A stretch of 64,000 bases of DNA from Escherichia coli (GTDB taxonomy: Bacteria > Pseudomonadota > Gammaproteobacteria > Enterobacterales > Enterobacteriaceae). The translations under genes and the position numbers were made by a program. Below, one piece after another: positions 2,484 through 50,334 of the stretch (positions are counted from its first letter, which is position 1; each line of letters starts with the position of its first letter). The stretch is taken from the NCBI RefSeq assembly GCF_003334405.1, contig NZ_QOWM01000013.1. The stretch is one strand, 5' to 3'. The notes beneath the pieces were generated by a model. It was not told the origin of the DNA and ran no database searches. It was given only the letters and a program-made list of their open reading frames with translations.

Positions 2484-4324
2484 TTATTGCGACTGCCGGA
2501 CACGTTGACCACGGCAAAACAACCTTATTGCAGGCGATTACTGGCGTAAATGCTGACCGTCTGCCGGAAGAAAAAAAGCGCGGCATGACCATCGATCTCG
2601 GCTATGCCTACTGGCCGCAGCCGGATGGTCGCGTGCCTGGTTTTATCGACGTTCCCGGTCATGAAAAGTTTCTTTCCAACATGCTGGCGGGCGTTGGTGG
2701 TATCGATCACGCGCTGTTGGTGGTGGCGTGCGATGACGGCGTGATGGCACAGACCCGTGAGCATCTGGCGATTTTGCAGCTGACCGGTAACCCGATGCTG
2801 ACAGTGGCGCTGACCAAAGCCGATCGCGTGGACGAAGCGCGTGTTGATGAGGTTGAACGCCAGGTAAAGGAGGTTCTGCGGGAATACGGTTTTGCTGAGG
2901 CAAAACTGTTTATCACCGCAGCAACCGAAGGTCGGGGAATGGATGCCCTGCGCGAGCATCTGCTTCAGTTGCCGGAACGCGAGCACGCCAGCCAACATAG
3001 TTTCCGCCTCGCGATTGACCGCGCATTTACCGTAAAAGGTGCCGGGCTGGTCGTCACCGGTACGGCGTTAAGCGGGGAAGTGAAGGTAGGCGATTCACTC
3101 TGGCTGACTGGTGTAAATAAACCGATGCGTGTACGTGCGCTGCATGCGCAAAACCAGCCAACAGAAACCGCCAATGCCGGGCAGCGTATCGCGCTTAACA
3201 TCGCGGGTGATGCGGAAAAAGAGCAGATTAACCGTGGCGACTGGCTGCTTGCCGATGTGCCGCCAGAGCCGTTCACACGGGTGATTGTCGAGCTTCAAAC
3301 CCATACACCGCTGACCCAGTGGCAGCCGCTGCATATTCACCACGCCGCCAGCCACGTCACGGGACGCGTTTCACTGCTGGAAGATAACCTTGCTGAACTG
3401 GTCTTCGACACCCCGTTATGGCTGGCAGATAACGACCGCCTGGTATTGCGCGATATCTCTGCCCGCAACACGCTGGCCGGAGCGCGCGTCGTGATGCTTA
3501 ACCCGCCGCGTCGCGGTAAACGTAAGCCGGAATATCTGCAATGGCTGGCGTCTCTTGCACGGGCGCAGAGCGATGCCGATGCGTTATCTGTTCATCTGGA
3601 ACGCGGCGCGGTTAACCTTGCGGATTTCGCCTGGGCGCGCCAGCTCAACGGCGAAGGGATGCGCGAATTGCTGCAACAGCCTGGTTATATTCAGGCTGGT
3701 TATAGCTTGTTGAATGCGCCGGTTGCCGCCCGCTGGCAGCGGAAAATTCTCGACACATTAGCGACTTATCATGAGCAACATCGCGATGAACCTGGCCCTG
3801 GGCGCGAACGTCTGCGACGTATGGCGTTGCCAATGGAAGATGAAGCGCTGGTACTGTTGCTGATTGAAAAGATGCGCGAAAGCGGCGACATCCACAGCCA
3901 TCACGGCTGGCTGCATCTGCCAGATCACAAAGCGGGCTTCAGCGAAGAGCAGCAGGCCATCTGGCAAAAAGCAGAGCCACTGTTTGGTGACGAACCGTGG
4001 TGGGTGCGTGACCTGGCAAAAGAGACGGGAACCGACGAGCAGGCAATGCGCCTGACTCTACGCCAGGCGGCGCAGCAAGGAATAATTACCGCGATCGTTA
4101 AAGATCGTTATTACCGTAACGATCGGATTGTCGAGTTTGCCAATATGATCCGCGATCTCGATCAGGAGTGTGGTTCAACCTGCGCGGCGGATTTCCGCGA
4201 TCGCTTAGGCGTAGGCCGAAAGCTGGCAATTCAGATTCTGGAATATTTTGACCGCATTGGCTTTACGCGTCGTCGTGGAAATGATCATTTATTGCGCGAC
4301 GCATTATTATTTCCGGAAAAATAA
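2480..4324 (+). CDS. selB: Selenocysteine-specific translation elongation factor
   Basis: 614-aa ORF with N-terminal GTPase P-loop [11 protein letters not shown]; recognised as SelB. Confidence 0.95.
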
Positions 4325-7912: not shown

Positions 7913-8236
7913 ATGTTCCTGGACTATTTTGCACTGGGAGTGCTTATTTTTGTATTTCTGGTGATCTTCTATGGGATCATTATTTTACATGATATTCCCT
8001 ACCTGATTGCCAAAAAACGTAATCATCCTCATGCCGACGCCATTCATGTTGCTGGTTGGGTGAGTCTTTTTACGTTACATGTTATCTGGCCGTTTTTGTG
8101 GATTTGGGCCACGCTTTACCGCCCGGAGCGGGGATGGGGAATGCAAAGCCATGATTCATCCGTTATGCAACTGCAACAGCGCATTGCCGGGCTGGAGAAA
8201 CAGCTCGCCGACATCAAATCCTCTTCTGCCGAGTAA
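7913..8236 (+). CDS. yiaW: Small inner-membrane protein YiaW (recalled as DUF3302 family)
   Basis: Start placed at ATG 7913 ([21 protein letters not shown]...), giving 107 aa with gaggga RBS upstream; two predicted TM segments. Confidence 0.8.
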
Positions 8237-8241
8237 TACTT

Positions 8242-9378
8242 ATGGATTTACTGATTATTTTGACCTATGTGGCTTTTGCATGGGCAATGTTTAAGATCTT
8301 CAAAATTCCCGTAAATAAATGGACCATTCCCACAGCGGCCCTGGGTGGAATATTTATTGTCAGCGGTCTAATTCTGTTAATGAACTATAACCATCCGTAT
8401 ACCTTTAAAGCGCAAAAAGCGGTTATTTCTATTCCTGTTGTCCCACAGGTGACTGGTGTGGTGATTGAAGTGACGGATAAGAAAAATACGCTGATTAAAA
8501 AAGGTGAGGTGCTATTTCGACTGGACCCGACGCGTTATCAGGCGCGGGTGGATCGGCTGATGGCGGATATCGTTACCGCAGAACATAAACAGCGGGCGTT
8601 GGGCGCAGAGTTAGATGAGATGGCGGCGAATACTCAGCAGGCAAAGGCCACGCGGGATAAATTCGCTAAAGAGTATCAGCGTTACGCACGTGGCAGCCAG
8701 GCGAAAGTAAACCCGTTTTCAGAACGCGATATCGATGTGGCGCGGCAAAATTATCTGGCGCAGGAAGCCTCCGTGAAGTCATCGGCGGCGGAACAAAAAC
8801 AGATCCAGAGCCAGCTGGATAGCCTGGTGTTGGGTGAACATTCTCAAATCGCCAGCCTGAAAGCACAGCTCGCGGAAGCAAAATATAACCTTGAGCAGAC
8901 GATAGTGCGTGCGCCGAGCGATGGTTATGTGACCCAGGTACTGATTCGTCCGGGTACCTATGCCGCGTCGCTGCCGCTACGTCCGGTGATGGTGTTTATA
9001 CCCGATCAGAAACGACAAATCGTGGCGCAGTTCCGTCAGAACTCCTTGCTGCGACTGGCTCCTGGCGACGATGCGGAAGTGGTGTTTAATGCTCTGCCAG
9101 GTAAGGTATTCAGCGGTAAGCTGGCAGCCATTAGTCCAGCCGTTCCCGGCGGAGCTTATCAGTCGACCGGCACCTTACAGACGTTAAACACAGCGCCGGG
9201 TTCAGATGGCGTTATCGCGACCATTGAACTGGATGAGCACACTGATTTGAGCGCTTTACCAGACGGTATTTACGCCCAGGTGGCGGTTTACTCTGATCAT
9301 TTCAGCCATGTCTCGGTGATGCGCAAAGTGCTATTACGCATGACCAGCTGGGTGCATTACCTTTATCTCGATCATTAA
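8242..9378 (+). CDS. yiaV: HlyD-family membrane-fusion (periplasmic adaptor) protein YiaV
   Basis: 378-aa ORF with N-terminal TM helix and long coiled-coil region; 6 bp downstream of yiaW. Confidence 0.85.
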
Positions 9379-10349
9379 TCTTCGCTTTCCGCCGCTTGTT
9401 CAGGCCGCAGTTGCTGCGACTGAGCAAGCTGGTGGCGAATTTCACGCAGCATTTCATCCAGCACATACTGGACCCGCCAGGGCTGGTATTCCCGTTTACG
9501 GAAGATAGCCACCAGATCCAGCCACCATTCATAGGGTTGCTGAAAGCAGGGCACCAGCGTGCCGTCTTGCAGGTCGCTCTGCACACTTTTGTCTGGCGCA
9601 AACACAATCCCCAGGTGATTTCGTGCCAGCTCCAGCGCAGATTGCGTGTTGTCGCAAACGTAATTTCCCTTCACGCGATAATCCCGCACCTCTTTACTCC
9701 CGGCGACGTTGAAGCGCCAGATATTCGCGTCGTCGATCATCATCGAGTCGATCAAAATACAGGAGTGATGTTCGAGTTCGTCAGGACGGCTAATGGGATG
9801 TTTCTCAAGATAGCGCTGGCTGGCATAAGCGGTTACGGCATATTGGGTAATAAAACTGGCAACCAGCGATTCATCTTTTGGTGGAGCGTAGCTGATTAAA
9901 ACATCACAATCATCAGGAAATTCGACGCCTTCATAAAAGGCATTACGCTCAAGATTGCAGGTTTTTAGCGATAAGGTGATATCACCGATATCTTTAATTT
10001 TATCGATTACATGTTTGGATAAATAGGTAATTATGCCGGTTGGGGCGTAGATGGTGACCCGACCACGTTTCTCATGCTTATAATCTGCAATAAAATTATT
10101 AAGTTGCTCGTTTCTGTCCAGCATGTCGTTGATGTACGGTAACAGCGCGGTGCCAAAAGGTGTGAGCATCAGCTGCCGGGTGGTTCGGTCAAAGACTTTT
10201 AAACCCACTTTTGATTCAAAATCAGCAAGATATTTGCTGACGTTGGCCTGTGCGATGCCAAGTACAGTCGCGGCATGGCTGATATTTTCACTGGCAGCGA
10301 TTACCGAGATAATTTTTAACTCCCGGTACTTAAGTTGTAATTTTGTCAT
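9375..10349 (-). CDS. yiaU: LysR-family transcriptional regulator YiaU
   Basis: 324-aa ORF with N-terminal HTH ([19 protein letters not shown]); 4-bp convergent overlap with yiaV. Confidence 0.85.
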
Positions 10350-10472
10350 CGCAACAGCCCAATTATATATAATTTTATATATTACTATATAAATATGAAT
10401 CTTGCACCGGAGAAATTGTAAGCATTATTATGCCGACTCTTTTTTATCTTATTTTAAAATGGAATACCGGAC

Positions 10473-11213
10473 ATGTTAATTAATCGCAATATTGTGGCGT
10501 TATTTGCGTTGCCTTTTATGGCAAGCGCAACTGCTTCTGAATTATCCATTGGTGCTGGTGCGGCTTATAATGAATCGCCTTATCGCGGTTATAATGAAAA
10601 TACGAAGGCAATTCCGCTGATTAGTTATGAAGGTGATACTTTTTATGTTCGTCAGACCACGTTAGGTTTTATTCTGTCGCAAAGTGAAAAAAATGAACTT
10701 AGCCTGACCGCATCCTGGATGCCGCTGGAATTTGACCCTACCGATAATGACGATTATGCCATGCAACAGCTTGATAAGCGTGATAGTACGGCTATGGCGG
10801 GGGTTGCCTGGTATCACCACGAGCGTTGGGGAACCGTGAAAGCCTCTGCAGCTGCGGACGTTCTGGATAACAGCAACGGCTGGGTGGGGGAGCTATCGGT
10901 ATTCCACAAAATGCAGATAGGTCGTCTGTCGCTGACACCTGCGCTGGGCGTTCTCTATTATGACGAGAATTTCAGTGACTATTACTATGGCATTTCAGAG
11001 AGTGAGTCCCGTCGTAGCGGTCTGGCAAGTTATTCCGCGCAGGATGCCTGGGTGCCCTATGTCAGCCTGACGGCAAAATACCCGATAGGAGAGCACGTCG
11101 TATTGATGGCGAGCGCAGGATACAGCGAGCTGCCGGAAGAGATTACCGACAGCCCGATGATTGATCGTAATGAGAGTTTTACCTTTGTCACCGGGGTGAG
11201 CTGGCGTTTTTAA
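10473..11213 (+). CDS. yiaT: MipA/OmpV-family outer-membrane protein YiaT
   Basis: 246-aa ORF with signal peptide and C-terminal ...GVSWRF beta-barrel terminus. Confidence 0.85.
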   Translation: MLINRNIVALFALPFMASATASELSIGAGAAYNESPYRGYNENTKAIPLISYEGDTFYVRQTTLGFILSQSEKNELSLTASWMPLEFDPTDNDDYAMQQLDKRDSTAMAGVAWYHHERWGTVKASAAADVLDNSNGWVGELSVFHKMQIGRLSLTPALGVLYYDENFSDYYYGISESESRRSGLASYSAQDAWVPYVSLTAKYPIGEHVVLMASAGYSELPEEITDSPMIDRNESFTFVTGVSWRF

Positions 11214-11468
11214 TTCACCGGTGGATGTCGGTGCGGCTGGTGCTCCGTCGTAATGCCACAAAGGTTGTTGCTCTGGATTGCTCTGTTCATACCGGGAACC
11301 TGGCGTCTGAATCAGGATCTTATGGCTGAACAATCCCTTGCCTTCAAATGTCGTAAATGGCGCATCGGCGGGCAGCAACAGGTTATGCAGTGACTCGACG
11401 TTGTCGGCCTGCTCCATGCAATACGGTTTAATGACGTTGGCTATTTCCGGCAGATTTTTCAGAAACAT
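11214..11468 (-). other. Possible gene remnant or small ORF downstream of sgbE (about 85 codons before the frame runs antisense into yiaT)
   Basis: ATG at 11468..11466 opens a frame (MFLKNLPEIANVIKPYCMEQADNVESLHNLLLPADAPFTTFEGKGLFSHKILIQTPGSRYEQ...) with protein-like composition; no recognisable full-length homologue from memory. Confidence 0.2.
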
Positions 11469-11559
11469 ACTGGTTTAACGCCAGCAGCGTGGAAGCGGCG
11501 TTACAGCAAGGAACATATCAATTCGTAGTGCCGGGGCGATGAAGCCCCGGCGTGAGGGA

Positions 11560-12255
11560 TTACTGCCCGTAATAGGCATTGGCCCCATGCTTACGCAGGT
11601 AGTGCTTATCCAGCAGTTCGTTTTGCATCGCAGGGAGCTGCGGCGCAAGCTGGCGCGAGAATAGACCCATATAGGCGCATTCTTCGAGTACTACGGCGTT
11701 ATGCACGGCATCGGCGGCGTTTTTACCCCATGCGAACGGGCCGTGAGAATGCACCAGCACCGCCGGGATTTGTGCCGGACTCCTGCCACGTTCTTCGAAG
11801 GTTTCAATGATCACTTCGCCGGTCTGATATTCATATTCGCCGTTAATCTCCTCTGCGGTCATCTGTCGCGTGCAGGGGATGGCACCGTAAAAATAATCGG
11901 CGTGGGTGGTGCCCCAGGCGGGGAGATCCAGCCCGGCCTGTGACCAGATGGTGGCGTGGCGCGAGTGGGTATGCACAATACCGCCAATTTCGGCATAGCG
12001 ACGGTAGAGCGCCAGATGCGTTGGTGTATCGGAAGAGGGTTTTTTGCTGCCTTCCACCACCTTACCGCTGGCTATCTCAACCACCACCATATCGTCGGCG
12101 GTCATCACGTCGTACTCGACGCCGGAAGGTTTGATTACCATCCATTGCCGCGTTTCGTCTACCGCGCTGACATTGCCCCAGGTGAACGTCACCAGATGGT
12201 GAGCGGGAAGCGCCAGATTCGCCGCCAGCACGTCGGCTTTCAGTTGCTCTAACAT
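11560..12255 (-). CDS. sgbE: L-ribulose-5-phosphate 4-epimerase
   Basis: 231-aa ORF recognised as SgbE (class II aldolase/epimerase). Confidence 0.93.
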
Positions 12256-13109
12256 ATAAATCCAGCCTCCTGCATACGCGCTTCAATCCAACGCCGCGCC
12301 TGAATAATCTCCAGCACCGGCTCTTTGGCTTTTTCGGTCCACATCTCAATCAGGAAAGAACCGCGATAGTTCAGTTTATGCAGCGTTTTGAAGATGCCAA
12401 CGAAATCGACGCAGCCTTCGCCAAACGGCACGTCGCGGAACTGTCCGGGACTTTGCCCGGTGACTGGCTGGGTGTCTTTCAGGTGGATCGCGGCGATACG
12501 GTCAATGCCCAGTTTCAGTTCGGCGGGAACATCATTGCCCCAGGCGCTGAGGTTGCCGACGTCCGGGTAGACGGTGAACCACGGTGAGGCGAGCATCTCG
12601 TCCCATTTTTTCCATTTGCTGATGGAGTTCATAAACGCGGTATCCATAATCTCCACCGCCAGCATTACTTGTGATGCCGCCGCCTGTTCGACTGCCCACG
12701 CCAGCCCTTCAGCAAAACGTTGCCGGGTGCCTTCGTCGTGGTCTTCGTAATAGACGTCATAACCTGCCAGCTGGATGGTGCGAATGCCGAGATCGCGCGC
12801 CAGGCGAATCGCTTTACTCATGATTTCCCGCGCCCGTTCGCGCACTGCCTCGTCACGGCTACCAAAGGGAAAGCGACGATGTGCGGACAGGCACATCGAC
12901 GGGATCCCAACACCTGTTTCGATCATCGCGGCAACCAGCGAAGTCCTTTGTGCGGCGCTCCAGTCAAGACGTGAGAGCCGTTCGTCGGTTTCATCCACCG
13001 ACATTTCGACAAAATCAAAACCGCAGCTTTTTGCCAGCACCAGCCGCTCCGGCCAGGAGAGATCTTTCGCCAGCGCTTTTTCATAAATCCCTAACGGATG
13101 ATTACGCAC
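12249..13109 (-). CDS. sgbU: L-xylulose-5-phosphate 3-epimerase
   Basis: ORF track gives 316 aa; I place the start at GTG 13109..13107 preceded by a ggaggtg RBS, giving the 286 aa I recall ([12 protein letters not shown]...). Confidence 0.88.
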
Positions 13110-13764
13110 GCGCACCTCCCCAGATAGCGTCGATTTGCGCATGGAAATCGCCAGCCACTTGCGCCGGATTTGCCGCGCCTGCCAGTGCCCGCCCGGCAAT
13201 AAACGCTTTCACGCGGATATCTTTAAACAGCGGCAGGTCAGCAGGGGTAATCCCGCCAGTAATGGAAAGCTCAAGGCCGATATCTGAAAGCGCCTTCATG
13301 CGTGCCAGATCGGCTTCGCCCCACTGTTGCCCGCTGGCCTGTGCATCACGACCGCGATGATAAATGGCCTGCCGCACGCCAATACGATGCCAGTCGCGGG
13401 CGTCGTCCAGCGTCCAGTTACCGAACAGCTCTATCTGAATTTCACCCCCGCAGCGTTGTGCCATTGCGTGGCCTTTTTCTACCGTCGCGAGCGGCGCGGC
13501 GCAGATGATGGTCATCCAGTTAGCGCCTGCGCCAAACGCCTGTTGCGCGAGCGTTTCACCAGCGTCGGCGACCTTCCAGTCAGCAACGATGATTTTGTCC
13601 GGGCACTGTTCGCGCAAGGCTTTCACCGCGCCAAGCCCTTCGTTTAAACAGAGAATGGTGCCCGCTTCGACGATATCGACGCTGTCTTTTAACAGCGTCA
13701 CGTCGCGCTGCGCGGCTTCAAGTGATGAGTGGTCGAGGGCCAGTTGCAGAAGTGGTCGGCTCAT
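13102..13764 (-). CDS. sgbH: 3-keto-L-gulonate-6-phosphate decarboxylase
   Basis: 220-aa ORF recognised as SgbH; overlaps the lyxK stop by 4 bp. Confidence 0.92.
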
Positions 13765-15257
13765 AATGTGTGCTCCTTAATGCGGGCGTGAAAGCCCTGA
13801 AGTGCGGCAATGAGATGCTGATAACGTTGATATTTTTTTTGGTAAAGCTGATGGGCGGTCATATCTGGCAGCAGGGTGCGCACCGGGTGTCGCAAGTCAC
13901 GTTGGGCTTCGCTGAAGTTGTGATAAACCCCGGTGCCGACGCGGGCGGCAAGGGCCGCACCAAAGCAGCCGGTTTCTTCCACCTGCGGCAGCTCGATACG
14001 CAGACCGCTGACGTCCGCCAGCATTTGCATCCAGACATCGGAGTGCGCCGGGCCGCCAGTGACGCGTAGGGTGTGAACATCAGTAAAACGTTCGCGCATT
14101 CGGTTGAGGTGGGTCATATGGCTGAACACCACCCCTTCATAGATGGCCTGCAACAGGTGCGCGCGGGTGTGAATGGCCTGCATCCCGTAGAAACCACTGG
14201 TCATCTCGAGTCCGGCGTTGCTGCCGTACAGGAACGGCAGGAAAAAGAGATCGCCCCCAGCCTTCGGCAAGCTGGCAACGGCCTGATTGATCTCATCAAA
14301 CGAGATTTCTCCCCACTGTGCGGTAAACCATTCGAGGTTGCCGGAAGAGGTAGGGCTGGCTTCGTGAACGATAAATTCACCATCGTTAACGTAGCGACCA
14401 TAGACATACGGATGCGCTTCACCGTCACGTAAACCGCGGGTTATGCCGCTGGTCACCGCCCAGGTCCCCATCACCGCATTGAGGGTAAATTCGTCTTCGA
14501 TCCCGGCGCAGAGTGCGGTGGAAACCACATCAAACAGGCCGCCAACAACGGGCGTACCCGCTTTCAGACCGGTCAGGGCGGCTGTCTGAGCGGTGATCTC
14601 CCCGCAGATTTCGGCAGATCCGACAACAGGCGGCAGGGCGTGATTGATTTCAGCGATCCCCAGCCAGTCGGTGAGGCACGGGTCATATTCCCCAAGACTC
14701 ATGTTGTAGAGGTTGGACTCGGAAATATTGCTCTCTTCACAGCCTTTGACGCCAGTTAAACACCAGCGCAGGTAGTCGTGCGTCATCATCACGCAGCCAA
14801 TTTGCGCGTAGCGTTCTGGTTCGTGCTCTTTCAGCCAGCGTAACAGCGACACCGGATGCCCGGTCCACAAGGTTTGTCGGGTCAGCGGGTAGAGTTTTTC
14901 CGGGATGCCATCTTCCTGCCAGCGACGAACGATTTCCATCGCCCGGCGGTCCGAGGACAAAATAGCATTCCCGAGCGGTTTGTCGTTTTTATCCAGCAAA
15001 AACAAGCCCTTTCCCTGTGCGGAGATGCCGATACCGACAATTTGTTCCCCGCTAACACCAGAATGAGTAAGCAGGGCGCGAATGACAGCCATGCAGCATT
15101 GCCACAGTTCTGCCATATCGCGCTCTGCCCAGCCTGGCTGCGGGCTTAATGCGCACAGCGGCAGGCGCTGCACGCCTGCCTCCCGGCCTTCGCGGTCATA
15201 CAGCCCGGCTTTCAGCCAGCTACCGCCACAATCTAACCCCAGCCAGTATTGCGTCAT
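13761..15257 (-). CDS. lyxK: L-xylulose / 3-keto-L-gulonate kinase
   Basis: 498-aa FGGY-family kinase recognised as LyxK. Confidence 0.93.
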   Translation of the reverse strand: MTQYWLGLDCGGSWLKAGLYDREGREAGVQRLPLCALSPQPGWAERDMAELWQCCMAVIRALLTHSGVSGEQIVGIGISAQGKGLFLLDKNDKPLGNAILSSDRRAMEIVRRWQEDGIPEKLYPLTRQTLWTGHPVSLLRWLKEHEPERYAQIGCVMMTHDYLRWCLTGVKGCEESNISESNLYNMSLGEYDPCLTDWLGIAEINHALPPVVGSAEICGEITAQTAALTGLKAGTPVVGGLFDVVSTALCAGIEDEFTLNAVMGTWAVTSGITRGLRDGEAHPYVYGRYVNDGEFIVHEASPTSSGNLEWFTAQWGEISFDEINQAVASLPKAGGDLFFLPFLYGSNAGLEMTSGFYGMQAIHTRAHLLQAIYEGVVFSHMTHLNRMRERFTDVHTLRVTGGPAHSDVWMQMLADVSGLRIELPQVEETGCFGAALAARVGTGVYHNFSEAQRDLRHPVRTLLPDMTAHQLYQKKYQRYQHLIAALQGFHARIKEHTL

Positions 15258-15260
15258 GGT

Positions 15261-16247
15261 TTATTGCACCTCATCCACGGCTTTCAGCAGATCAGCTCCC
15301 TGCGGCACATCTTTAACAAACATGTCGCGAACCTGATTCCCCAGTGCGTCGCTAAAGGCTTTGCGGTCGAGATCGGTGATGACTTCCACGCCCGCTTCTT
15401 TCATGCCGTCGATGATTTTTTGCTGATCTTCAGCAACCAGTTTGCGCTGATAGTTACCCGCTTCTTGTGCAGATGAAACTAGCGCCTGCTGGAACTCCGG
15501 ACTTAAGCCATCAAACTTCGCTTTGTTGATCACCACCAGAAGCGGGGAATAGGCGTGGTGCGTCAGAGAAAGGAACTTCTGCACTTCGAAAAATTTTGCT
15601 GACCAGACGACGTTGATCGGGTGTTCCTGAGCGTCGATAGTGCGGGTTTCCAGCCCGGTATAGACTTCGGCAAACGGCATCGGGATCGGGTTAGCGCCAA
15701 AGACTTTGAATGCGGCGATATTCATCGGGCTATTGTTGGTGCGGATTTTCAGCCCTTTCAGGTCGGCGGGGGTTTTAACCGGTGCGCGCGAGTTGGTGAC
15801 ATCGCGCCAGCCGTTTTCCCAGTAGGCCAGTACTTTCAGTCCTTTACCTTCAAGTGAGGCTTTCAGATCATCACCGACTTTGCCGTCGAGCGTTTTATGC
15901 GCGTGAGCGGTATCGCGGAACAGGAAAGGGACATCAAGCAAGTTCATCACTGGTGATAACCCGGCAAAGTTATTCGAGCCGGACATTTCCATATCGATGG
16001 TGCCGCCACGTACGCCGCTGATCATCGCCTGCGCGTTACCGAGAGTGCTGTCCGGGAACAGTTTTAATTTCAGCTCGCCTTTGGTTCTCTCCTGCAATAA
16101 ATCATTGAATTTTTTCGCCGCAATATATTGCGAGTCGGTTTGTGATGTTTCATAACCGAAACGTAAAGATTGTGCCGCCAGAGAAGATGTGCTGAATGCA
16201 GCCAGGCCAGCAATGAATAATGCGTAGGTTACAGAGCGTAATTTCAT
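15261..16247 (-). CDS. yiaO: TRAP transporter periplasmic solute-binding protein (2,3-diketo-L-gulonate)
   Basis: 328-aa ORF with signal peptide, DctP family. Confidence 0.92.
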   Translation of the reverse strand: MKLRSVTYALFIAGLAAFSTSSLAAQSLRFGYETSQTDSQYIAAKKFNDLLQERTKGELKLKLFPDSTLGNAQAMISGVRGGTIDMEMSGSNNFAGLSPVMNLLDVPFLFRDTAHAHKTLDGKVGDDLKASLEGKGLKVLAYWENGWRDVTNSRAPVKTPADLKGLKIRTNNSPMNIAAFKVFGANPIPMPFAEVYTGLETRTIDAQEHPINVVWSAKFFEVQKFLSLTHHAYSPLLVVINKAKFDGLSPEFQQALVSSAQEAGNYQRKLVAEDQQKIIDGMKEAGVEVITDLDRKAFSDALGNQVRDMFVKDVPQGADLLKAVDEVQ

Positions 16248-16259
16248 AATATTTTCCTT

Positions 16260-17537
16260 TTAATTAATCCATTTCAAAGGGAGGATGATGAGATCGGGAA
16301 TAAAAACAAATACGACTAATAATGAATATAAAACCAGGACGTAAGGGAAAACGCCTCTGACTGCATCATCGAATTTGAGTTTTGCCACCCCTGAAATAAC
16401 GTTAAGTACATTACCGATAGGCGGTGTAATTAAGCCGATTGAGCAGTTAATGATAAACATGACACCGAAATAAATCGGATCGATTCCTGCCTCTTTAACT
16501 AAAGGCATTAATACCGGGGTAAGAATTAATACCGTCGGCGTTAAATCCATGACCATGCCGACAATCAGGATAGCCACCATAATGACGATAAACAGCAGAC
16601 GCGGTGAATCGACCAACGGTTGCAGTAAATCAGAAACCATCATCGGCAGTTCAGCAATGGTAATCAGCCAGGCGGAAACTTGTGCCGAGGCCACCAGAAA
16701 CATAACCACTGAGGTGGTTTTCGCCGCGCCAATGAGTACATGCCAAAGTGTGGCGAAGGTCATTTCACGGTAAATAACTGTGGCGACAAACAGCGCATAG
16801 AAAGCAGCAACGGCCCCGGCTTCGGTAGGGGTAAACAGACCGGAGCGAAACCCGCCAATAATGATGACTGGAAGAAACAGCGCCCAGATACCGGAGACAA
16901 AAGAGTGCCAGATTTCCTGCATCGTTGCTTTTTGCTGGCGGGGTAAATTAAGGCGACTGGCCTGCCACCACCAGGTAAGCATCAGCGTTGCGCCCATCAT
17001 CATGCCAGGGGCAATGCCCGCCATAAACAGCTTACTGATGGATAATCCGCTGGAAACGCCGAAGATAATAAACGGAATGGAAGGGGGAATAATTGGCGCG
17101 ATAATGCCGCCAGAGGCAATCAGCCCCGCCGCCCGGTTGACCGGATAGTTGGCGCTGCGCATCATCGGCACCAGTAGAGCGGCAACGGCGGCGGTATCCG
17201 CAACGGCAGAACCAGAAAGGCTCGCCATAATCATAGCTGCCAGCACGCCGACGTAGCCCAGCCCGCCTGGTTTATGCCCCACCAGTTTCATCGGCAGGTC
17301 AACAATGCGTTTTGACAAGCCGCCCGCATTCATGATTTCACCCGCCAGCACAAAGAACGGAATCGCCAGCAGGGAGAAGCTATCGGCTCCGTTCACCAGC
17401 GTTTGTGCCATGATCTGGACATCAAACATGTCCAGCCAGAACATTAACGCCGCCCCGCACAACAACAGTGCCCAGGCAATAGGCAAACCGATAGCAATAC
17501 CACCCAACAGACAGCCCAGAAAAATCAGCACAGCCAT
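16260..17537 (-). CDS. yiaN: TRAP transporter large permease (DctM family)
   Basis: 425-aa polytopic membrane ORF. Confidence 0.92.
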   Translation of the reverse strand: MAVLIFLGCLLGGIAIGLPIAWALLLCGAALMFWLDMFDVQIMAQTLVNGADSFSLLAIPFFVLAGEIMNAGGLSKRIVDLPMKLVGHKPGGLGYVGVLAAMIMASLSGSAVADTAAVAALLVPMMRSANYPVNRAAGLIASGGIIAPIIPPSIPFIIFGVSSGLSISKLFMAGIAPGMMMGATLMLTWWWQASRLNLPRQQKATMQEIWHSFVSGIWALFLPVIIIGGFRSGLFTPTEAGAVAAFYALFVATVIYREMTFATLWHVLIGAAKTTSVVMFLVASAQVSAWLITIAELPMMVSDLLQPLVDSPRLLFIVIMVAILIVGMVMDLTPTVLILTPVLMPLVKEAGIDPIYFGVMFIINCSIGLITPPIGNVLNVISGVAKLKFDDAVRGVFPYVLVLYSLLVVFVFIPDLIILPLKWIN

Positions 17538-17539
17538 GA

Positions 17540-18014
17540 TTAAGCTCCTTGCGGTGGCGACGTTAGAGAATTGCTACGCGTGATGAGTTGATATAAATGA
17601 CGCAGTTCAAAGAATGCGATAACGAGGCTGGTGGGCAGACAAGCGGCATACATCAGGCCGATGGGTAAACCGAGGATCGGTGAATAATCGCTCCAGTCCT
17701 GAATTGTTTTTAGCGTTGCGCCCCAGGCCAGTGCGCCACAAATAAATAAGATTAAGGAATGGGTAACCAGAGCGACTCGTCGCTGCCATGCGGGGGAGAG
17801 TTTCTCCACCAGAAAGGTGACCTGAACGTGGGCGTTATCCATAAAAGCTACAATCGCGCCAATAAACGTTAACCAGACAAATAAATAACGTGACAATTCA
17901 TCAACAGATAAAATGCTTGTCTGAAAACCATATCTTAAAATAATGTTTATAAATACAATACAGGAAAGTACGGCGAGATTAATCGCCAGTATTGCTTCGA
18001 GTATTTTTTTTCAT
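17540..18014 (-). pseudogene. yiaM: TRAP transporter small permease (DctQ family), apparently frameshifted at the 5' end
   Basis: ATG at 18014..18012 is followed by an 8-A run (plus-strand T8 at 18004..18011) and terminates after 11 codons. The frame continuous with the rest of the gene begins with TGA at 18013..18011. With one A fewer, the gene reads [30 protein letters not shown]... for the 157 aa I recall. Confidence 0.6.
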
Positions 18015-18131
18015 AGCTATTCCTTGAGGCTATGTCTGTCATAATTCAAGTCGCATGTGCAGCAACCTGAATTATTAATATAGTTAGAGCAATAACATTA
18101 CCCAGGCGTTCTGGCGTAGACGATTATTCGA

Positions 18132-18602
<471 letters not shown>

Positions 18603-18610
18603 TTATCTCC

Positions 18611-19609
18611 TCATAACGCCTGGATTTTGGCCCACACGCTGTCATCAACAGTGATGCCGTTACGGCGGTTTTCGGCCAGCAGGGTAGTAAATTCATGGCC
18701 GGGTAAGCGAATGGCCTGATTTTCGTCAGCACGCTCGGCACTAGTAACGTAATCCATGATGCGTTGCAGCTTGGCATCGCGGGTGGGACCGTCGATAAGC
18801 TTGTCCACTTCAATGGCAATAAAAATTTGTGAAATGCCGTATTCGTCGCTGTTGTCCTGGGTGACTTCGGCAACGGATGCGCCGTCGGAAAGGAGAGTAG
18901 CGATCATATCCAGCACAATCGACATGCCAGAACCTTTCCAGTAGCCCATCGGCAAAATGCGGCGATTCTTCTCGATAACGCCAGGTTCTTTGGTCAAATT
19001 GCCCTCATCATCAAAGCCACCATCGACCGGGAGCTGACGACCTGCCAGACGGTTAACTTCTAACATGCCGTAAGAGAACATCGACATCGACATATCGACC
19101 ATGGTGATCGGCGTGGAAGGAATGGCGACGATCAGCGGGTTAGTGCCGATGCGACACTCTTTTGCGCCCCACGGCGGCATTACGGCGATGGAGTTGGTCC
19201 AGCAAATGCCAATATAGCCTTTTTCCGCCGCCTGCCAGCCGTAGCTGCCGCCGCGCATCCAGTGGTTGGCATTACGTAGTGCCACCAGACCAATACCGTG
19301 ATCGGCAGCCAGTTCAATGGCGCGATCCATCATCTTTTTCGCTGTCAGGTTACCGATCGAACGCTGGGCGTCCCACTGTTCAATTGCGCCGAGGCTGGTT
19401 ATACGTTTGGGTTGGGCATCAGGAATGATATCGCCGTTTTCCAGTTGTTGAATGAAACGAGGGAAACGATTAACGCCGTGAGAATAAACGCCGGATTCGG
19501 TGGTGCGGGCGAACATCTCTGCACAGGCGTCAGCCGTTTCGCTGTCAACGCCGCGTGAAATTAAGACCCGATTAAAGGCTGCTTTTAACTGCTCAAATGT
19601 CACTTTCAT
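18611..19609 (-). CDS. yiaK: 2,3-diketo-L-gulonate reductase
   Basis: 332-aa ORF recognised as YiaK; first gene of the yiaK-sgbE operon. Confidence 0.9.
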
Positions 19610-19809: not shown

Positions 19810-20658
19810 ATGGGGAAAGAAGTGATGGGAAAAAAAGAGAACGAGATGGCGCAGGAAAAAGAGCGTCCAGCCGGAAGCCAGAGTCTGTTTCGCGGGTTGA
19901 TGCTGATTGAGATTTTGAGCAACTATCCAAACGGTTGTCCGTTGGCGCATCTTTCGGAGCTGGCTGGTTTAAATAAGAGTACCGTCCATCGCTTATTGCA
20001 GGGATTACAGTCCTGCGGCTATGTGACCACCGCGCCTGCCGCAGGGAGTTATCGCCTGACCACCAAATTTATTGCCGTCGGGCAGAAGGCGCTGTCTTCG
20101 CTGAATATCATTCATATCGCCGCTCCGCATCTTGAGGCACTGAACATCGCCACTGGTGAAACCATTAACTTCTCCAGCCGCGAAGACGATCACGCTATTT
20201 TGATTTATAAGCTGGAACCCACAACCGGGATGCTGCGAACCCGTGCCTATATTGGCCAGCATATGCCGCTCTACTGTTCCGCAATGGGCAAGATCTACAT
20301 GGCGTTTGGTCACCCGGACTACGTGAAGTCATACTGGGAAAGCCATCAGCATGAGATCCAGCCGTTAACCCGCAATACCATTACCGAGCTGCCCGCGATG
20401 TTCGACGAACTGGCGCACATTCGTGAAAGCGGAGCGGCGATGGACAGAGAAGAAAACGAACTCGGCGTCTCCTGTATTGCTGTTCCGGTGTTTGATATTC
20501 ATGGGCGGGTGCCGTACGCCGTGTCGATTTCGCTTTCGACATCACGTCTGAAACAGGTGGGAGAGAAAAATCTCCTGAAACCACTGCGTGAAACCGCGCA
20601 GGCTATTTCTAATGAACTGGGATTTACTGTCAGGGATGACCTGGGCGCGATCACATAA
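19810..20658 (+). CDS. yiaJ: IclR-family transcriptional repressor YiaJ
   Basis: 282-aa ORF with N-terminal HTH and C-terminal IclR effector domain. Confidence 0.9.
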   Translation: MGKEVMGKKENEMAQEKERPAGSQSLFRGLMLIEILSNYPNGCPLAHLSELAGLNKSTVHRLLQGLQSCGYVTTAPAAGSYRLTTKFIAVGQKALSSLNIIHIAAPHLEALNIATGETINFSSREDDHAILIYKLEPTTGMLRTRAYIGQHMPLYCSAMGKIYMAFGHPDYVKSYWESHQHEIQPLTRNTITELPAMFDELAHIRESGAAMDREENELGVSCIAVPVFDIHGRVPYAVSISLSTSRLKQVGEKNLLKPLRETAQAISNELGFTVRDDLGAIT

Positions 20659-28622: not shown

Positions 28623-30141
28623 GATGTTCGCTCCTCAATGCGGCTTCCATCACCTGCTCCTGAGTCAGGTTATGATTTATCAGGTTGGCTTTTAGTTTCC
28701 CTTCATGCATCACCAGTACACGATCGCTAAGGCCGAGCACTTCAGGTAATTCGGAAGAGATGACAATAACGGCAATACCCTGCTGGACGAGTTGGTTAAT
28801 TAATTTGTAGATCTCGTATTTCGCGCCAATATCGATACCCCTGGTGGGTTCATCAAGAATGAGAATGCGCGGGTTAAGTAACAGACAGCGAGCGAGGATC
28901 GCTTTTTGCTGATTGCCGCCGCTCAAACGTCCAATAGCAAGGTCGGGGGACGACGTTTTAACTTTGAGTTGCTGGATTGATTCCAGAATACATTTTTGCT
29001 CTGCCGCGTCATCAAGCTGGCTAATGCCACCGGTAAATTTATTGAGTGCGGCGAGGGTAATATTTTTACCAACCGCCATTACCGGAACGATGCCGTCGCG
29101 CTTTCTGTCTTCGGGGACCATCGCAATCCCCTGGGCGATGGCTTGCTGACAGTTACGAATATCTACCTGTTTGCCATCAATATAAATTTTTCCTTCCCAT
29201 TGTCCGGGCCACACACCAAACAGGCACTGAATGGTCTCGGTACGTCCGGCACCAACGAGTCCGGCAATACCCAATATTTCGCCACGTTTCAGGGAAAACG
29301 AGACATCATTAACTCGTTTAATATGACGATTAACCGGATGCCATGCCGTCAGATGTTCAATACGTAATATTTCATCTCCGGTGGTATGTGGTTCATTAGG
29401 GTAAAGCGCGGTTAACTCTCGCCCGACCATCATGGTGATAATATCGTCTTCACTCATTCCGGCAGCATCACGCGTACCAATGTGCTGTCCGTCGCGAATA
29501 ACGCAAATCGTATCGGAAATCGCTTTGACTTCTTTGAGTTTGTGCGAAATATAAATACAGGCGATACCGTGCTGTTGTAGATCGCGAATAATATCCAGTA
29601 AAACCGACGTTTCCTGCTCAGTTAATGAGGCTGTCGGTTCATCGAGAATTAACAAGCGCACCTGTTTATTAAGTGCCTTGGCAATTTCAACCAGTTGTTG
29701 TTGCCCAAGCCCTAAATCGCCAACGCGGGTATCAGGTGAAATGGATAAACTGACCTGTGCGAGCAGCTTCTGACAGCGTAGCGTCATCAGGTCATAATCC
29801 ATAATGCCATTGTGGGTTATTTCGTTACCCAGGAAGATATTTTCCAGCACGGTCAATTCTTTCACCAGGGCCAATTCCTGATGAATGATGGCGATACCTT
29901 TGCGTTCGGTATCGCGGATGTGACTCGCCTGAATCTCTTCTCCCGCAAAAATAATTTCGCCTTCGTAGGAGCCATGGGGATAAATACCACACAGCACTTT
30001 CATCAGCGTTGATTTACCAGACCCATTTTCCCCACAAAGTGAGACGATTTCGCCAGCATTCAACCGCAAGCAGACGTTATCAATCGCCTTCACACTGCCG
30101 AAGGTTTTGGTAATGTTCTTCATTTCAAGTAGATAAGGCAT
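28600..30141 (-). CDS. xylG: Xylose ABC transporter ATP-binding protein
   Basis: 513-aa ORF with two ABC ATPase domains ([17 protein letters not shown]). Confidence 0.95.
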
Positions 30142-31576: not shown

Positions 31577-32899
31577 ATGCAAGCCTATTTTGACCAGCTC
31601 GATCGCGTTCGTTATGAAGGCTCAAAATCCTCAAACCCGTTAGCATTCCGTCACTACAATCCCGACGAACTGGTGTTGGGTAAGCGTATGGAAGAGCACT
31701 TGCGTTTTGCCGCCTGCTACTGGCACACCTTCTGCTGGAACGGGGCGGATATGTTTGGTGTGGGGGCGTTTAATCGTCCGTGGCAGCAGCCTGGTGAGGC
31801 ACTGGCGTTGGCGAAGCGTAAAGCAGATGTCGCATTTGAGTTTTTCCACAAGTTACATGTGCCATTTTATTGCTTCCACGATGTGGATGTTTCCCCTGAG
31901 GGCGCGTCGTTAAAAGAGTACATCAATAATTTTGCGCAAATGGTTGATGTCCTGGCAGGCAAGCAAGAAGAGAGCGGCGTGAAGCTGCTGTGGGGAACCG
32001 CCAACTGCTTTACAAACCCTCGCTACGGCGCGGGTGCGGCGACGAACCCAGATCCTGAAGTCTTCAGCTGGGCGGCAACGCAAGTTGTTACAGCGATGGA
32101 AGCAACCCATAAATTGGGCGGTGAAAACTATGTCCTGTGGGGCGGTCGTGAAGGTTACGAAACGCTGTTAAATACCGACTTGCGTCAGGAGCGTGAACAA
32201 CTGGGCCGCTTTATGCAGATGGTGGTTGAGCATAAACATAAAATCGGTTTCCAGGGCACGTTGCTTATCGAACCGAAACCGCAAGAACCGACCAAACATC
32301 AATATGATTACGATGCCGCGACGGTCTATGGCTTCCTGAAACAGTTTGGTCTGGAAAAAGAGATTAAACTGAACATTGAAGCTAACCACGCGACGCTGGC
32401 AGGTCACTCTTTCCATCATGAAATAGCCACCGCCATTGCGCTTGGCCTGTTCGGTTCTGTCGACGCCAACCGTGGCGATGCGCAACTGGGCTGGGACACC
32501 GACCAGTTCCCGAACAGTGTGGAAGAGAATGCGCTGGTGATGTATGAAATTCTCAAAGCAGGCGGTTTCACCACCGGTGGTCTGAACTTCGATGCCAAAG
32601 TACGTCGTCAAAGTACTGATAAATATGATCTGTTTTACGGTCATATCGGCGCGATGGATACGATGGCACTGGCGCTGAAAATTGCAGCGCGCATGATTGA
32701 AGATGGCGAGCTGGATAAACGCATCGCGCAGCGTTATTCCGGCTGGAATAGCGAATTGGGCCAGCAAATCCTGAAAGGCCAAATGTCACTGGCAGATTTA
32801 GCCAAATATGCTCAGGAACATCATTTGTCTCCGGTGCATCAGAGTGGTCGCCAGGAACAACTGGAAAATCTGGTAAACCATTATCTGTTCGACAAATAA
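31577..32899 (+). CDS. xylA: Xylose isomerase
   Basis: Start placed at ATG 31577 ([31 protein letters not shown]...), giving 440 aa. Confidence 0.97.
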
Positions 32900-32970: not shown

Positions 32971-34425
32971 ATGTATATCGGGATAGATCTTGGCACCTCG
33001 GGCGTAAAAGTTATTTTGCTCAACGAGCAGGGTGAGGTGGTTGCTGCGCAAACGGAAAAGCTGACCGTTTCGCGCCCGCATCCACTCTGGTCGGAACAAG
33101 ACCCGGAACAGTGGTGGCAGGCAACTGATCGCGCAATGAAAGCTCTGGGCGATCAGCATTCTCTGCAGGACGTTAAAGCATTGGGTATTGCCGGCCAGAT
33201 GCACGGAGCAACCTTGCTGGATGCTCAGCAACGGGTGTTACGCCCTGCCATTTTGTGGAACGACGGGCGCTGTGCGCAAGAGTGCACTTTGCTGGAAGCG
33301 CGAGTTCCGCAATCGCGGGTGATTACCGGCAACCTGATGATGCCCGGATTTACTGCGCCTAAATTGCTATGGGTTCAGCGGCATGAGCCGGAGATATTCC
33401 GTCAAATCGACAAAGTATTATTACCGAAAGATTACTTGCGTCTGCGTATGACGGGGGAGTTTGCCAGCGATATGTCTGACGCAGCTGGCACCATGTGGCT
33501 GGATGTCGCAAAGCGTGACTGGAGTGACGTCATGCTGCAGGCTTGCGACTTATCTCGTGACCAGATGCCCGCATTATACGAAGGCAGCGAAATTACTGGT
33601 GCTTTGTTACCTGAAGTTGCGAAAGCGTGGGGTATGGCGACGGTGCCAGTTGTCGCAGGCGGTGGCGACAATGCAGCTGGTGCAGTTGGTGTGGGAATGG
33701 TTGATGCTAATCAGGCAATGTTATCGCTGGGGACGTCGGGGGTCTATTTTGCTGTCAGCGAAGGGTTCTTAAGCAAGCCAGAAAGCGCCGTACATAGCTT
33801 TTGCCATGCGCTACCGCAACGTTGGCATTTAATGTCTGTGATGCTGAGTGCAGCGTCGTGTCTGGATTGGGCCGCGAAATTAACCGGCCTGAGCAATGTC
33901 CCAGCTTTAATCGCTGCAGCTCAACAGGCTGATGAAAGTGCCGAGCCAGTTTGGTTTCTGCCTTATCTTTCCGGCGAGCGTACGCCACACAATAATCCCC
34001 AGGCGAAGGGGGTTTTCTTTGGTTTGACTCATCAACATGGCCCCAATGAACTGGCGCGAGCAGTGCTGGAAGGCGTGGGTTATGCGCTGGCAGATGGCAT
34101 GGATGTCGTGCATGCCTGCGGTATTAAACCGCAAAGTGTTACGTTGATTGGGGGCGGGGCGCGTAGTGAGTACTGGCGTCAGATGCTGGCGGATATCAGC
34201 GGTCAGCAGCTCGATTACCGTACGGGGGGGGATGTGGGGCCAGCACTGGGCGCAGCAAGGCTGGCGCAGATCGCGGCGAATCCAGAGAAATCGCTCATTG
34301 AATTGTTGCCGCAACTACCGTTAGAACAGTCGCATCTACCAGATGCGCAGCGTTATGCCGCTTATCAGCCACGACGAGAAACGTTCCGTCGCCTCTATCA
34401 GCAACTTCTGCCATTAATGGCGTAA
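32971..34425 (+). CDS. xylB: Xylulokinase
   Basis: 484-aa FGGY kinase MYIGIDLGTSGVKVILLNEQGEV... Confidence 0.95.
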   Translation: MYIGIDLGTSGVKVILLNEQGEVVAAQTEKLTVSRPHPLWSEQDPEQWWQATDRAMKALGDQHSLQDVKALGIAGQMHGATLLDAQQRVLRPAILWNDGRCAQECTLLEARVPQSRVITGNLMMPGFTAPKLLWVQRHEPEIFRQIDKVLLPKDYLRLRMTGEFASDMSDAAGTMWLDVAKRDWSDVMLQACDLSRDQMPALYEGSEITGALLPEVAKAWGMATVPVVAGGGDNAAGAVGVGMVDANQAMLSLGTSGVYFAVSEGFLSKPESAVHSFCHALPQRWHLMSVMLSAASCLDWAAKLTGLSNVPALIAAAQQADESAEPVWFLPYLSGERTPHNNPQAKGVFFGLTHQHGPNELARAVLEGVGYALADGMDVVHACGIKPQSVTLIGGGARSEYWRQMLADISGQQLDYRTGGDVGPALGAARLAQIAANPEKSLIELLPQLPLEQSHLPDAQRYAAYQPRRETFRRLYQQLLPLMA

Positions 34426-49250: not shown

Positions 49251-49407
49251 ACTTTCCCTCGCTATGTACCCGATCGTAAAAATTTCAGCCGCTTTTCTTG
49301 ACGCATCGGTGAAAAAGTCAATATTTAATACAGGGCTACTATGCCCGATATCCTTCATACAATGACAATAATATTGCCGAATTCGGCTCTTCTCTGGAGT
49401 CGTGTTA

Positions 49408-50106
49408 ATGATCATAAAAAAAAGCGGTGGTCGCTGGCAGCTAAGCCTGCTGGCGAGCGTGGTAATCAGTGCCTTTTTTCTCAACACAGCTTACGCCTGG
49501 CAACAAGAATATATCGTTGATACGCAACCCGGACTTTCCACAGAGCGTTACACCTGGGATAGTGATCATCAACCTGATTACAACGATATTTTGTCGCAAC
49601 GTATTCAAAGTAGCCAAAGGGCGCTGGGACTGGAAGTCAATCTGGCGGAAGAAACCCCTGTGGATGTGACCAGCAGTATGAGTATGGGCTGGAATTTTCC
49701 TTTATATGAACAGGTTACAACCGGCCCGGTCGCGGCATTACATTACGATGGCACAACCACCTCGATGTATAACGAGTTTGGCGACAGTACTACCACGCTG
49801 ACCGATCCGTTATGGCATGCCAGCGTGAGTACCTTAGGCTGGCGTGTTGACTCCCGGCTTGGCGATCTCCGACCCTGGGCGCAAATCAGCTATAACCAGC
49901 AATTTGGCGAGAATATCTGGAAGGCGCAATCAGGCCTGAGCCGGATGACGGCGACAAACCAGAACGGCAACTGGCTGGATGTCACCGTAGGCGCTGATAT
50001 GTTGCTCAATCAAAATATTGCCGCCTATGCCGCGCTAACTCAGGCAGAAAATACCACTAATAATAGCGACTATCTGTATACGATGGGGGTTAGCGCCAGA
50101 TTTTAA
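49408..50106 (+). CDS. yhjY: Uncharacterised signal-peptide protein YhjY (autotransporter beta-domain-like)
   Basis: Start placed at ATG 49408 (MIIKKSGGRWQLSLLASVVISAFFLNTAYA...); C-terminal ...MGVSARF beta-barrel-like terminus. Start position is uncertain. Confidence 0.75.
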   Translation: MIIKKSGGRWQLSLLASVVISAFFLNTAYAWQQEYIVDTQPGLSTERYTWDSDHQPDYNDILSQRIQSSQRALGLEVNLAEETPVDVTSSMSMGWNFPLYEQVTTGPVAALHYDGTTTSMYNEFGDSTTTLTDPLWHASVSTLGWRVDSRLGDLRPWAQISYNQQFGENIWKAQSGLSRMTATNQNGNWLDVTVGADMLLNQNIAAYAALTQAENTTNNSDYLYTMGVSARF

Positions 50107-50251: not shown

Positions 50252-50334
50252 GCCGTTTTTCCCCAGGCATAAAGTGCACTTCGTTATGGTTGTCGGCAGA
50301 GATTTTTCCTTTTTATTACTGCAGGAATACTGCC

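Follow-up and report, generated by a model that had tools for sequence, protein, structure and literature searches.

An Extra Adenine in the Poly(A) Tract of yiaM Is Probably a Real, Heritable Frameshift Allele of Escherichia coli

In the YiaMNO TRAP transporter, which takes up 2,3-diketo-L-gulonate, YiaM is the small membrane subunit of the DctQ type, and a small subunit of this type (DctQ, SiaQ) is required for TRAP transporter function. The closest described counterpart of the gene analyzed here is yiaM of K-12 MG1655 (b3577), which is the same gene in the same operon (yiaJ / yiaKLMNO-lyxK-sgbHUE) and has an identical coding body. In MG1655, seven A follow the ATG and the product has 157 residues, whereas in the DNA studied here eight A follow the ATG, which is out of frame. 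Two groups of described systems resemble this arrangement. In the contingency genes of Campylobacter, Haemophilus, and Neisseria, the length of a homopolymer near the 5' end of the gene switches the reading frame, as it does in yiaM. Baranov et al. 2005 (PMC1088944) collected cases in which, as here, a poly(A) run has gained one base and an otherwise intact gene is broken as a result.

The window, i.e. the whole stretch of 64,000 nucleotides of E. coli DNA that was analyzed, carries yiaM on the minus strand. The positions of the relevant features are listed in Table 1. The ATG is followed directly by the eight A, which read as T8 on the plus strand, and the minus-strand letters after the tract are TACTCGAAG / TACTCGAAGCAATACTGGCG. 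The original prediction had proposed a one-base insertion at this site, with translation from the only ATG ending after 11 codons and the frame of the gene body opening with a TGA. Sequence and translation bore out both reading frames, the second of which continued to the normal stop. Alignment with MG1655 established the insertion itself: the reference has seven A and is the same as the window at all other positions over 256 aligned nt. MG1655 yiaM comprises 474 nt, and the 157 residues that it encodes agree with the length given in the original prediction. In the body frame, the first codon of the ATG/GTG/TTG set is the TTG at 17896, from which 118 residues would be read. The original prediction had named this codon as the fallback start, at the expense of the first transmembrane helix, and the open reading frame and the hydropathy profile are in agreement with that. 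The extra A is a direct sequence difference and not a statistical pattern, so chance is not an issue.

Table 1. Positions of yiaM start-region features and of neighboring operon genes in the window
Feature	Position	Strand	Basis or remark
yiaO, periplasmic binding protein, intact, with an apparently private H41Y at 16127	15261..16247	-	ORF, alignments
yiaN, large TRAP permease (DctM type), intact	16260..17537	-	ORF
yiaM body frame: opening TGA at 18013-18011, residues 2-157, normal stop at 17542-17540	17540..18013	-	Intact save for the lost start
TTG, first canonical in-frame start, without Shine-Dalgarno; 118-aa product without transmembrane helix 1	17894..17896	-	
Short ORF read from the ATG, 11 codons, stop TAA 17981-17979	17979..18014	-	Translation
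ATA codon, Ile4 of the normal protein; RefSeq/PGAP start of the 154-aa YiaM in A8 genomes	18002..18004	-	
Poly(A) tract A8	18004..18011	-	Lesion by one extra A; A7 in MG1655 and in ~97% of E. coli genomes
Normal yiaM start codon ATG, out of frame with the gene body	18012..18014	-	Sequence, MG1655 alignment
Shine-Dalgarno AAGGA	18021..18025	-	5-6 nt 5' of ATG 18014; sole usable ribosome-binding site of the region
Upstream ATG, third frame, 31-aa ORF in the window; in frame with yiaM only in A9 alleles	18040..18042	-	
yiaL and yiaK, upstream genes of the same operon, intact	18132..19609	-	ORFs

The protein restored by removal of one A was compared with family models and solved structures. It matched the NCBIfam equivalog NF007374 over positions 1-157 of 157 with 329.6 bits (cut-off 260), and Pfam DctQ (PF04290) over residues 17-145 with an E value of 3e-30. 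In an alignment with the solved structures of the small subunit SiaQ (7qha and 8b01), the restored N-terminal helix was covered from residue 6 onward. Four hydrophobic segments were seen in a hydropathy scan, the first of them within residues 1-31. The longest canonical ORF of the unedited sequence, i.e. the 118-residue ORF from the TTG, reached 244.8 bits and stayed below the NF007374 cut-off of 260; its product lacks residues 1-39, helix 1 among them. An ORF with a canonical start that encodes the whole of YiaM including helix 1 was not found in the yiaM locus of the window. The neighbors of yiaM are as in K-12 (yiaK, yiaL, yiaN, yiaO, lyxK, and the divergent yiaJ). The adjoining DctM-type and DctP-type genes, yiaN (425 aa) and yiaO (328 aa), have the order and names found in ATCC 8739 and MG1655.

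Run lengths at the tract were counted in 5,426 complete RefSeq E. coli genomes with queries of 87-89 nt that included 40-nt flanks. A difference in length appears as a gap in the alignment, so that the band of at least 99% identity holds genomes with the same run length only. Because ~2-3 alignments per query in this band are end-trimmed or partial and break off at the tract (e.g. NCTC9064), the counts are given as ranges; they are counts of genomes, not of independent mutational events, and clonal sets (ATCC 8739, the CM1805xx series) are included. Eight A were found in at least 74 and up to ~106 of the 3,869 complete genomes carrying the locus (~2-3%). With K-12-like flanks, in which CTC follows the tract, seven A were counted in 1,361 genomes and eight A in 74 genomes of the 99% band, 44 of which matched all 88 nt. 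With the second common flank type (CTT), the corresponding numbers were 1,894 for seven A and 32 for eight A (29 listed with the 88-nt span). Comparison with MG1655 and other E. coli genomes had been put forward in the original prediction as a check. Seven A proved to be the state of the reference and of ~97% of genomes; eight A is not shared by the reference and the other strains at large.

The genomes with eight A include three records of ATCC 8739 (NC_010468, CP022959, and CP033020). KCTC 2571 and B-3008 also carry eight A at coordinates matching ATCC 8739 and are probably the same strain. ECCWS199 combines the eight-A tract with a further upstream SNP, and strain 1409 carries it on yet another variant. 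Nine A were present in two of the 3,869 genomes, E110019 and F8704-2. The rest of yiaM together with yiaN and yiaO is intact in the eight-A genomes ATCC 8739, YJ6, and C10. Further decay is evident in some other eight-A genomes, namely a second frameshift in 2013C-3342 and an IS1 element in STEC388, PI24, and strain 167. At least nine complete E. coli genomes, with seven-A as well as eight-A backgrounds, have yiaM or yiaN broken by independent IS1 insertions, which points to a general decay of the transporter genes.

Homopolymers are a classic site of indel errors, and the extra A could in principle be an assembly or sequencing error in this genome only, the strain truly having seven A and an intact yiaM. 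Two runs in the same assemblies served as controls. At the selB run (window 2571-2577), seven A were counted in 3,342 genomes and eight A in one; at the lyxK run of the same operon (13833-13840), eight A were counted in 1,349 genomes and nine A in one. Variants with one additional base thus amount to 1/~3,343 genomes at selB and 1/~1,350 at lyxK (about 0.03-0.07%) as against the 2-3% at yiaM, and length variants are 30-100 times commoner per genome at the yiaM tract than at these comparable runs. Because the selB and lyxK variants are so much rarer, a generic assembly error is unlikely as the cause of the eight-A tract. Given that eight A are observed, a real allele is roughly 50-100 times likelier than an error.

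The same question was addressed by comparing the window with its nearest relatives, which are CP8-3_Sichuan and at least eight other genomes. Within 22 kb, the differences between these genomes and the window are limited to 16127, 29533, and the tract. Inspection of CP8-3_Sichuan showed seven A at the tract, and the other closest 22-kb matches are also one base shorter than the window over the 22,000-nt match. This speaks for an error, as does the result that an exact match to the window was not found among complete RefSeq E. coli genomes, the best 22-kb matches differing at three positions. Over 61 kb, however, the window was separated from its nearest relative by five SNPs, the single-base indel of the tract, and one 21-nt indel. 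The assembly is evidently not littered with homopolymer errors, because the tract is the sole single-base indel in these 61 kb. Among the 21 runs of seven or eight identical bases in the window, it alone differs in length within the compared stretch (1-61016). We consider an error confined to this genome unlikely.

The genomes with eight A are more distant from the window, the numbers of differing sites in 22 kb being 29 for YJ6, 68 for C10, and 40 for ATCC 8739. Identity of the window with ATCC 8739 was ruled out by these 40 SNPs. YJ6 is identical to the window over 8000-18337 save for 16127, and the seven-A genome CP8-3 is also identical over this block. Because YJ6 with eight A and CP8-3 with seven A match the block equally, this strain may have inherited the eight-A tract with the block or gained it independently.

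The remaining differences are recorded here as separate observations. The yiaMNO region spans 2.7 kb and contains two of the six small differences counted over 61 kb. Codon 41 of yiaO (16127) is TAT (Tyr) in the window and CAT (His) in MG1655, ATCC 8739, CP8-3_Sichuan, YJ6, and C10. A match to 16090-18060 without a mismatch at 16127 was not found in any complete E. coli genome, and the best 2-kb matches differ there; the H41Y exchange looks private to the window and adds a further small lesion to the transporter. At 29533 (xylG), the window encodes Lys, and an Asn codon is present in CP8-3, ATCC 8739, YJ6, and C10, i.e. in all compared genomes that cover the site. The other differences from the nearest relative are Gly in the window versus Glu at 38327 (glyS), a synonymous difference at 31666 (xylA), and a difference at 49393, 15 nt upstream of the yhjY start. 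At 50252, between yhjX and yhjY, the window lacks 21 nt (TCCGTTCTGATGGCATTTCAT) that are present in CP8-3_Sichuan; the difference has the look of an intergenic indel at a short direct repeat. Collinearity with CP8-3_Sichuan stops at 61016, where that genome has an IS1 element and a truncated transporter gene beside dppF. Other long in-gene runs in the window lie at 49416-49423 (yhjY codons 3-6), 34224-34231 (xylB, G8), and 19830-19836 (yiaJ, A7).

The flanks of the tract indicate how often the extra base may have arisen. The CTT type combines the eight A with a C/T SNP that lies 12 nt from the first A and 5 nt downstream of the tract. In ECCWS199, they are accompanied by a C/T SNP 17 nt upstream of the tract. 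On the K-12-like type, they occur in 22-kb backgrounds that are tens of SNPs apart. Because at least three flanking haplotypes are involved and the K-12-like backgrounds differ by tens of SNPs, the eight-A allele arose at least three times, unless very short recombination tracts moved it. Its most likely source is replication slippage, by which one A is added to the seven-A tract in codons 2-4 (AAA AAA A). The original prediction had left a choice between a true strain allele, a homopolymer sequencing error, and a site partly rescued by slippage. The first of these is by far the best, the same eight A being present in dozens of complete genomes and on several haplotypes.

A tract that recurs in several lengths might also be a phase-variable (contingency) switch, with selection toggling YiaMNO on and off. 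In keeping with this, alleles with seven, eight, and nine A form a series in nature, eight A occur on several haplotypes and have seemingly arisen repeatedly, and they exceed the additional-base variants of selB and lyxK 30-100-fold per genome. The distribution of lengths is nevertheless lopsided, with ~97% of genomes at seven A and nine A in only two of 3,869. A tract of seven to eight bases is short for high-rate switching in a mismatch-repair-proficient species. The excess of eight A is explained without selection by clonal inheritance, given that the operon is dispensable. Because the counts are of genomes, including clonal sets, and not of events, no claim of selection for the eight-A allele is made. 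The IS1 insertions elsewhere in yiaM and yiaN speak for a general decay of the locus. A switch under selection is therefore regarded as very improbable. The eight-A tract represents a frameshift polymorphism of the ordinary homopolymer kind, and the operon concerned is dispensable and normally repressed.

In our preferred explanation, the yiaM of the window is a true and heritable +1 frameshift allele from which little or no YiaM is made, so that uptake is lost or greatly reduced; we hold this to be probable. Its expected effect follows from the translation signals. The duplex of the region upstream of the ATG at 18014 with the 3' end of 16S rRNA has a predicted energy of -5.4 kcal/mol at a spacing of 5 nt. 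At the alternative starts, either the pairing energy is no better than 0 to -1.5 kcal/mol or the spacing is 15 nt. The ATA at 18004 shares the AAGGA element from 15 nt away and in competition with the ATG, and the TTG at 17896 and other near-cognate in-frame codons have essentially no Shine-Dalgarno pairing. Ribosomes would therefore load at the sole good Shine-Dalgarno/ATG pair (18025-18012), and synthesis would end at 17981-17979 with a peptide of 11 residues. The YiaM-coding frame has no start codon with a ribosome-binding site, and YiaM is most likely absent or present at a very low level in a strain with eight A.

Because the small subunit is needed and YiaM would be absent or very scarce, YiaMNO-dependent uptake of 2,3-diketo-L-gulonate is probably lost or greatly reduced. 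In addition, ~440 nt of untranslated mRNA 5' of yiaN may lower downstream expression by polarity. The Shine-Dalgarno sequence of yiaN itself is strong, with -7.7 kcal/mol, and is located within the last part of yiaM. No RNA family was found in 17300-18700 with Rfam, and a scan of 17800-18300 for promoters and terminators gave nothing above the shuffled expectation. The allele may persist since the yiaK-S operon is repressed by YiaJ and dispensable; it is a low-frequency polymorphism that has arisen more than once.

It was also considered whether the allele is real but leaky, with enough functional YiaM formed by initiation at the ATA at 18004, by a +1 slip of tRNA-Lys, or by RNA polymerase dropping an A. 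The intact state of the downstream frame and of yiaN and yiaO in ATCC 8739, YJ6, and C10 fits that case, and it fits a recent allele as well. RefSeq takes the 154-residue form from the ATA as a normal protein, and this form is present on at least 1,000 contigs; however, the ATA start is a pipeline call without experimental support. Initiation at AUA amounts to 0.1-3% of that at AUG even in an optimal context with an ideal site (bioRxiv 10.1101/063800), and the Shine-Dalgarno sequence is here 15 nt off and serves the competing ATG.

Rescue by transcriptional slippage ("pseudo pseudogenes") has been proposed for runs of nine A/T in bacterial genomes (PMC1088944). In the same work, nine A were treated as slippery and eight A as non-slippery. 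The run in yiaM has eight A and thus falls short of the threshold of at least nine A/T on the sense strand that is used there. A further criterion for such slippage is an out-of-frame run length that is conserved in homologues, and at yiaM the in-frame seven A prevail in ~97% of genomes. In reporter assays with E. coli RNA polymerase, no detectable activity was obtained on A runs shorter than eight, and deletion rescue was not seen on any poly(A) run tested (PMC6260861).

With respect to a slip of the ribosome, the tract is slippery, and re-pairing of tRNA-Lys on AAA in the +1 frame would be perfect, judging from the sequence; it would restore the wild-type MKKILEA N terminus. Of the hallmarks of prfB-type +1 frameshifting, however, the AAA-A is present and the others are missing. 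The next codon in the A site is AAU, which is neither a stop nor rare, so that a stimulus for a +1 shift is lacking. In the prfB type, a Shine-Dalgarno-like stimulator lies about 3 nt upstream; in yiaM, the sole element of this kind (18025-18021) is used for initiation and is located at least 10 nt upstream of the possible shift site. We judge it unlikely, on balance, that the allele is leaky enough to supply functional YiaM. The more specific idea that the allele is not dead, a tRNA-Lys +1 slip on AUG-AAA-AAA-A early in elongation or an A lost now and then by RNA polymerase restoring the MKKILEA... protein at a few percent, appears improbable. If it were true, YiaMNO would operate at a fixed low level in a sizeable minority of E. 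coli, the reference strain ATCC 8739 among them, and the ATA model of RefSeq would be wrong on the mechanism and right that a product exists.

Under the preferred reading of a real frameshift allele, the treatment of the gene in databases becomes relevant. The eight-A genomes are annotated in RefSeq/PGAP with a 154-residue YiaM that starts at the ATA (WP_042185990.1 and WP_032148054.1) and bears no frameshift flag. The 154-residue product found on at least 1,000 contigs of a large protein collection is identical to the ATA-start product of the window. We infer that the latter corresponds to WP_032148054.1, the accession of eight-A genomes with the K-12 body sequence. The 118-residue form from the TTG, as called by other annotators, was present on 68 contigs. 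For the nine-A genome E110019, RefSeq gives a 167-residue protein from the upstream ATG (window 18042), again without a frameshift flag. A pseudogene flag is set only when there is further damage, e.g. in 2013C-3342 (second frameshift) and STEC388 (IS1). In our reading, the eight-A yiaM genes that are intact according to RefSeq are frameshift alleles hidden by annotation; the allele is already in public data and is shown there as an intact gene. Pseudogene counts and pan-genome tables miss the frameshift because the gene models from the ATA (154 aa) and the upstream ATG (167 aa) hide it. Among the matches listed by a full-text search for yiaM, no paper on the tract was found.

A defect in YiaMNO uptake is probable in strains with eight A, among them ATCC 8739, which is widely used. 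This likely defect matters for metabolic models and for work on L-ascorbate, L-lyxose, and 2,3-diketo-L-gulonate. The general importance is small. As a homopolymer indel in a dispensable operon, the extra A of yiaM is a clean case of recurrence with persistence, the comparable runs in selB and lyxK staying fixed.

As outlined above, the locus can be set beside several known systems. ATCC 8739 and ~70-100 other complete genomes have the eight-A tract and its 231-nt surroundings as in the window, and yet the 22-kb haplotype of ATCC 8739 is a different one, 40 SNPs apart. In comparison with contingency genes, the yiaM tract is short and one length accounts for ~97% of genomes, with no sign of reversible switching in the consensus assemblies compared and no sign of a function that would profit from it. 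The cases of Baranov et al. 2005 (PMC1088944) go from eight A to nine A, where slippage is appreciable, whereas yiaM goes from seven to eight. Moreover, for yiaM to be rescued, one A would have to be dropped during transcription of a poly(A) sense run, and such deletion was not detected for E. coli RNA polymerase (PMC6260861).
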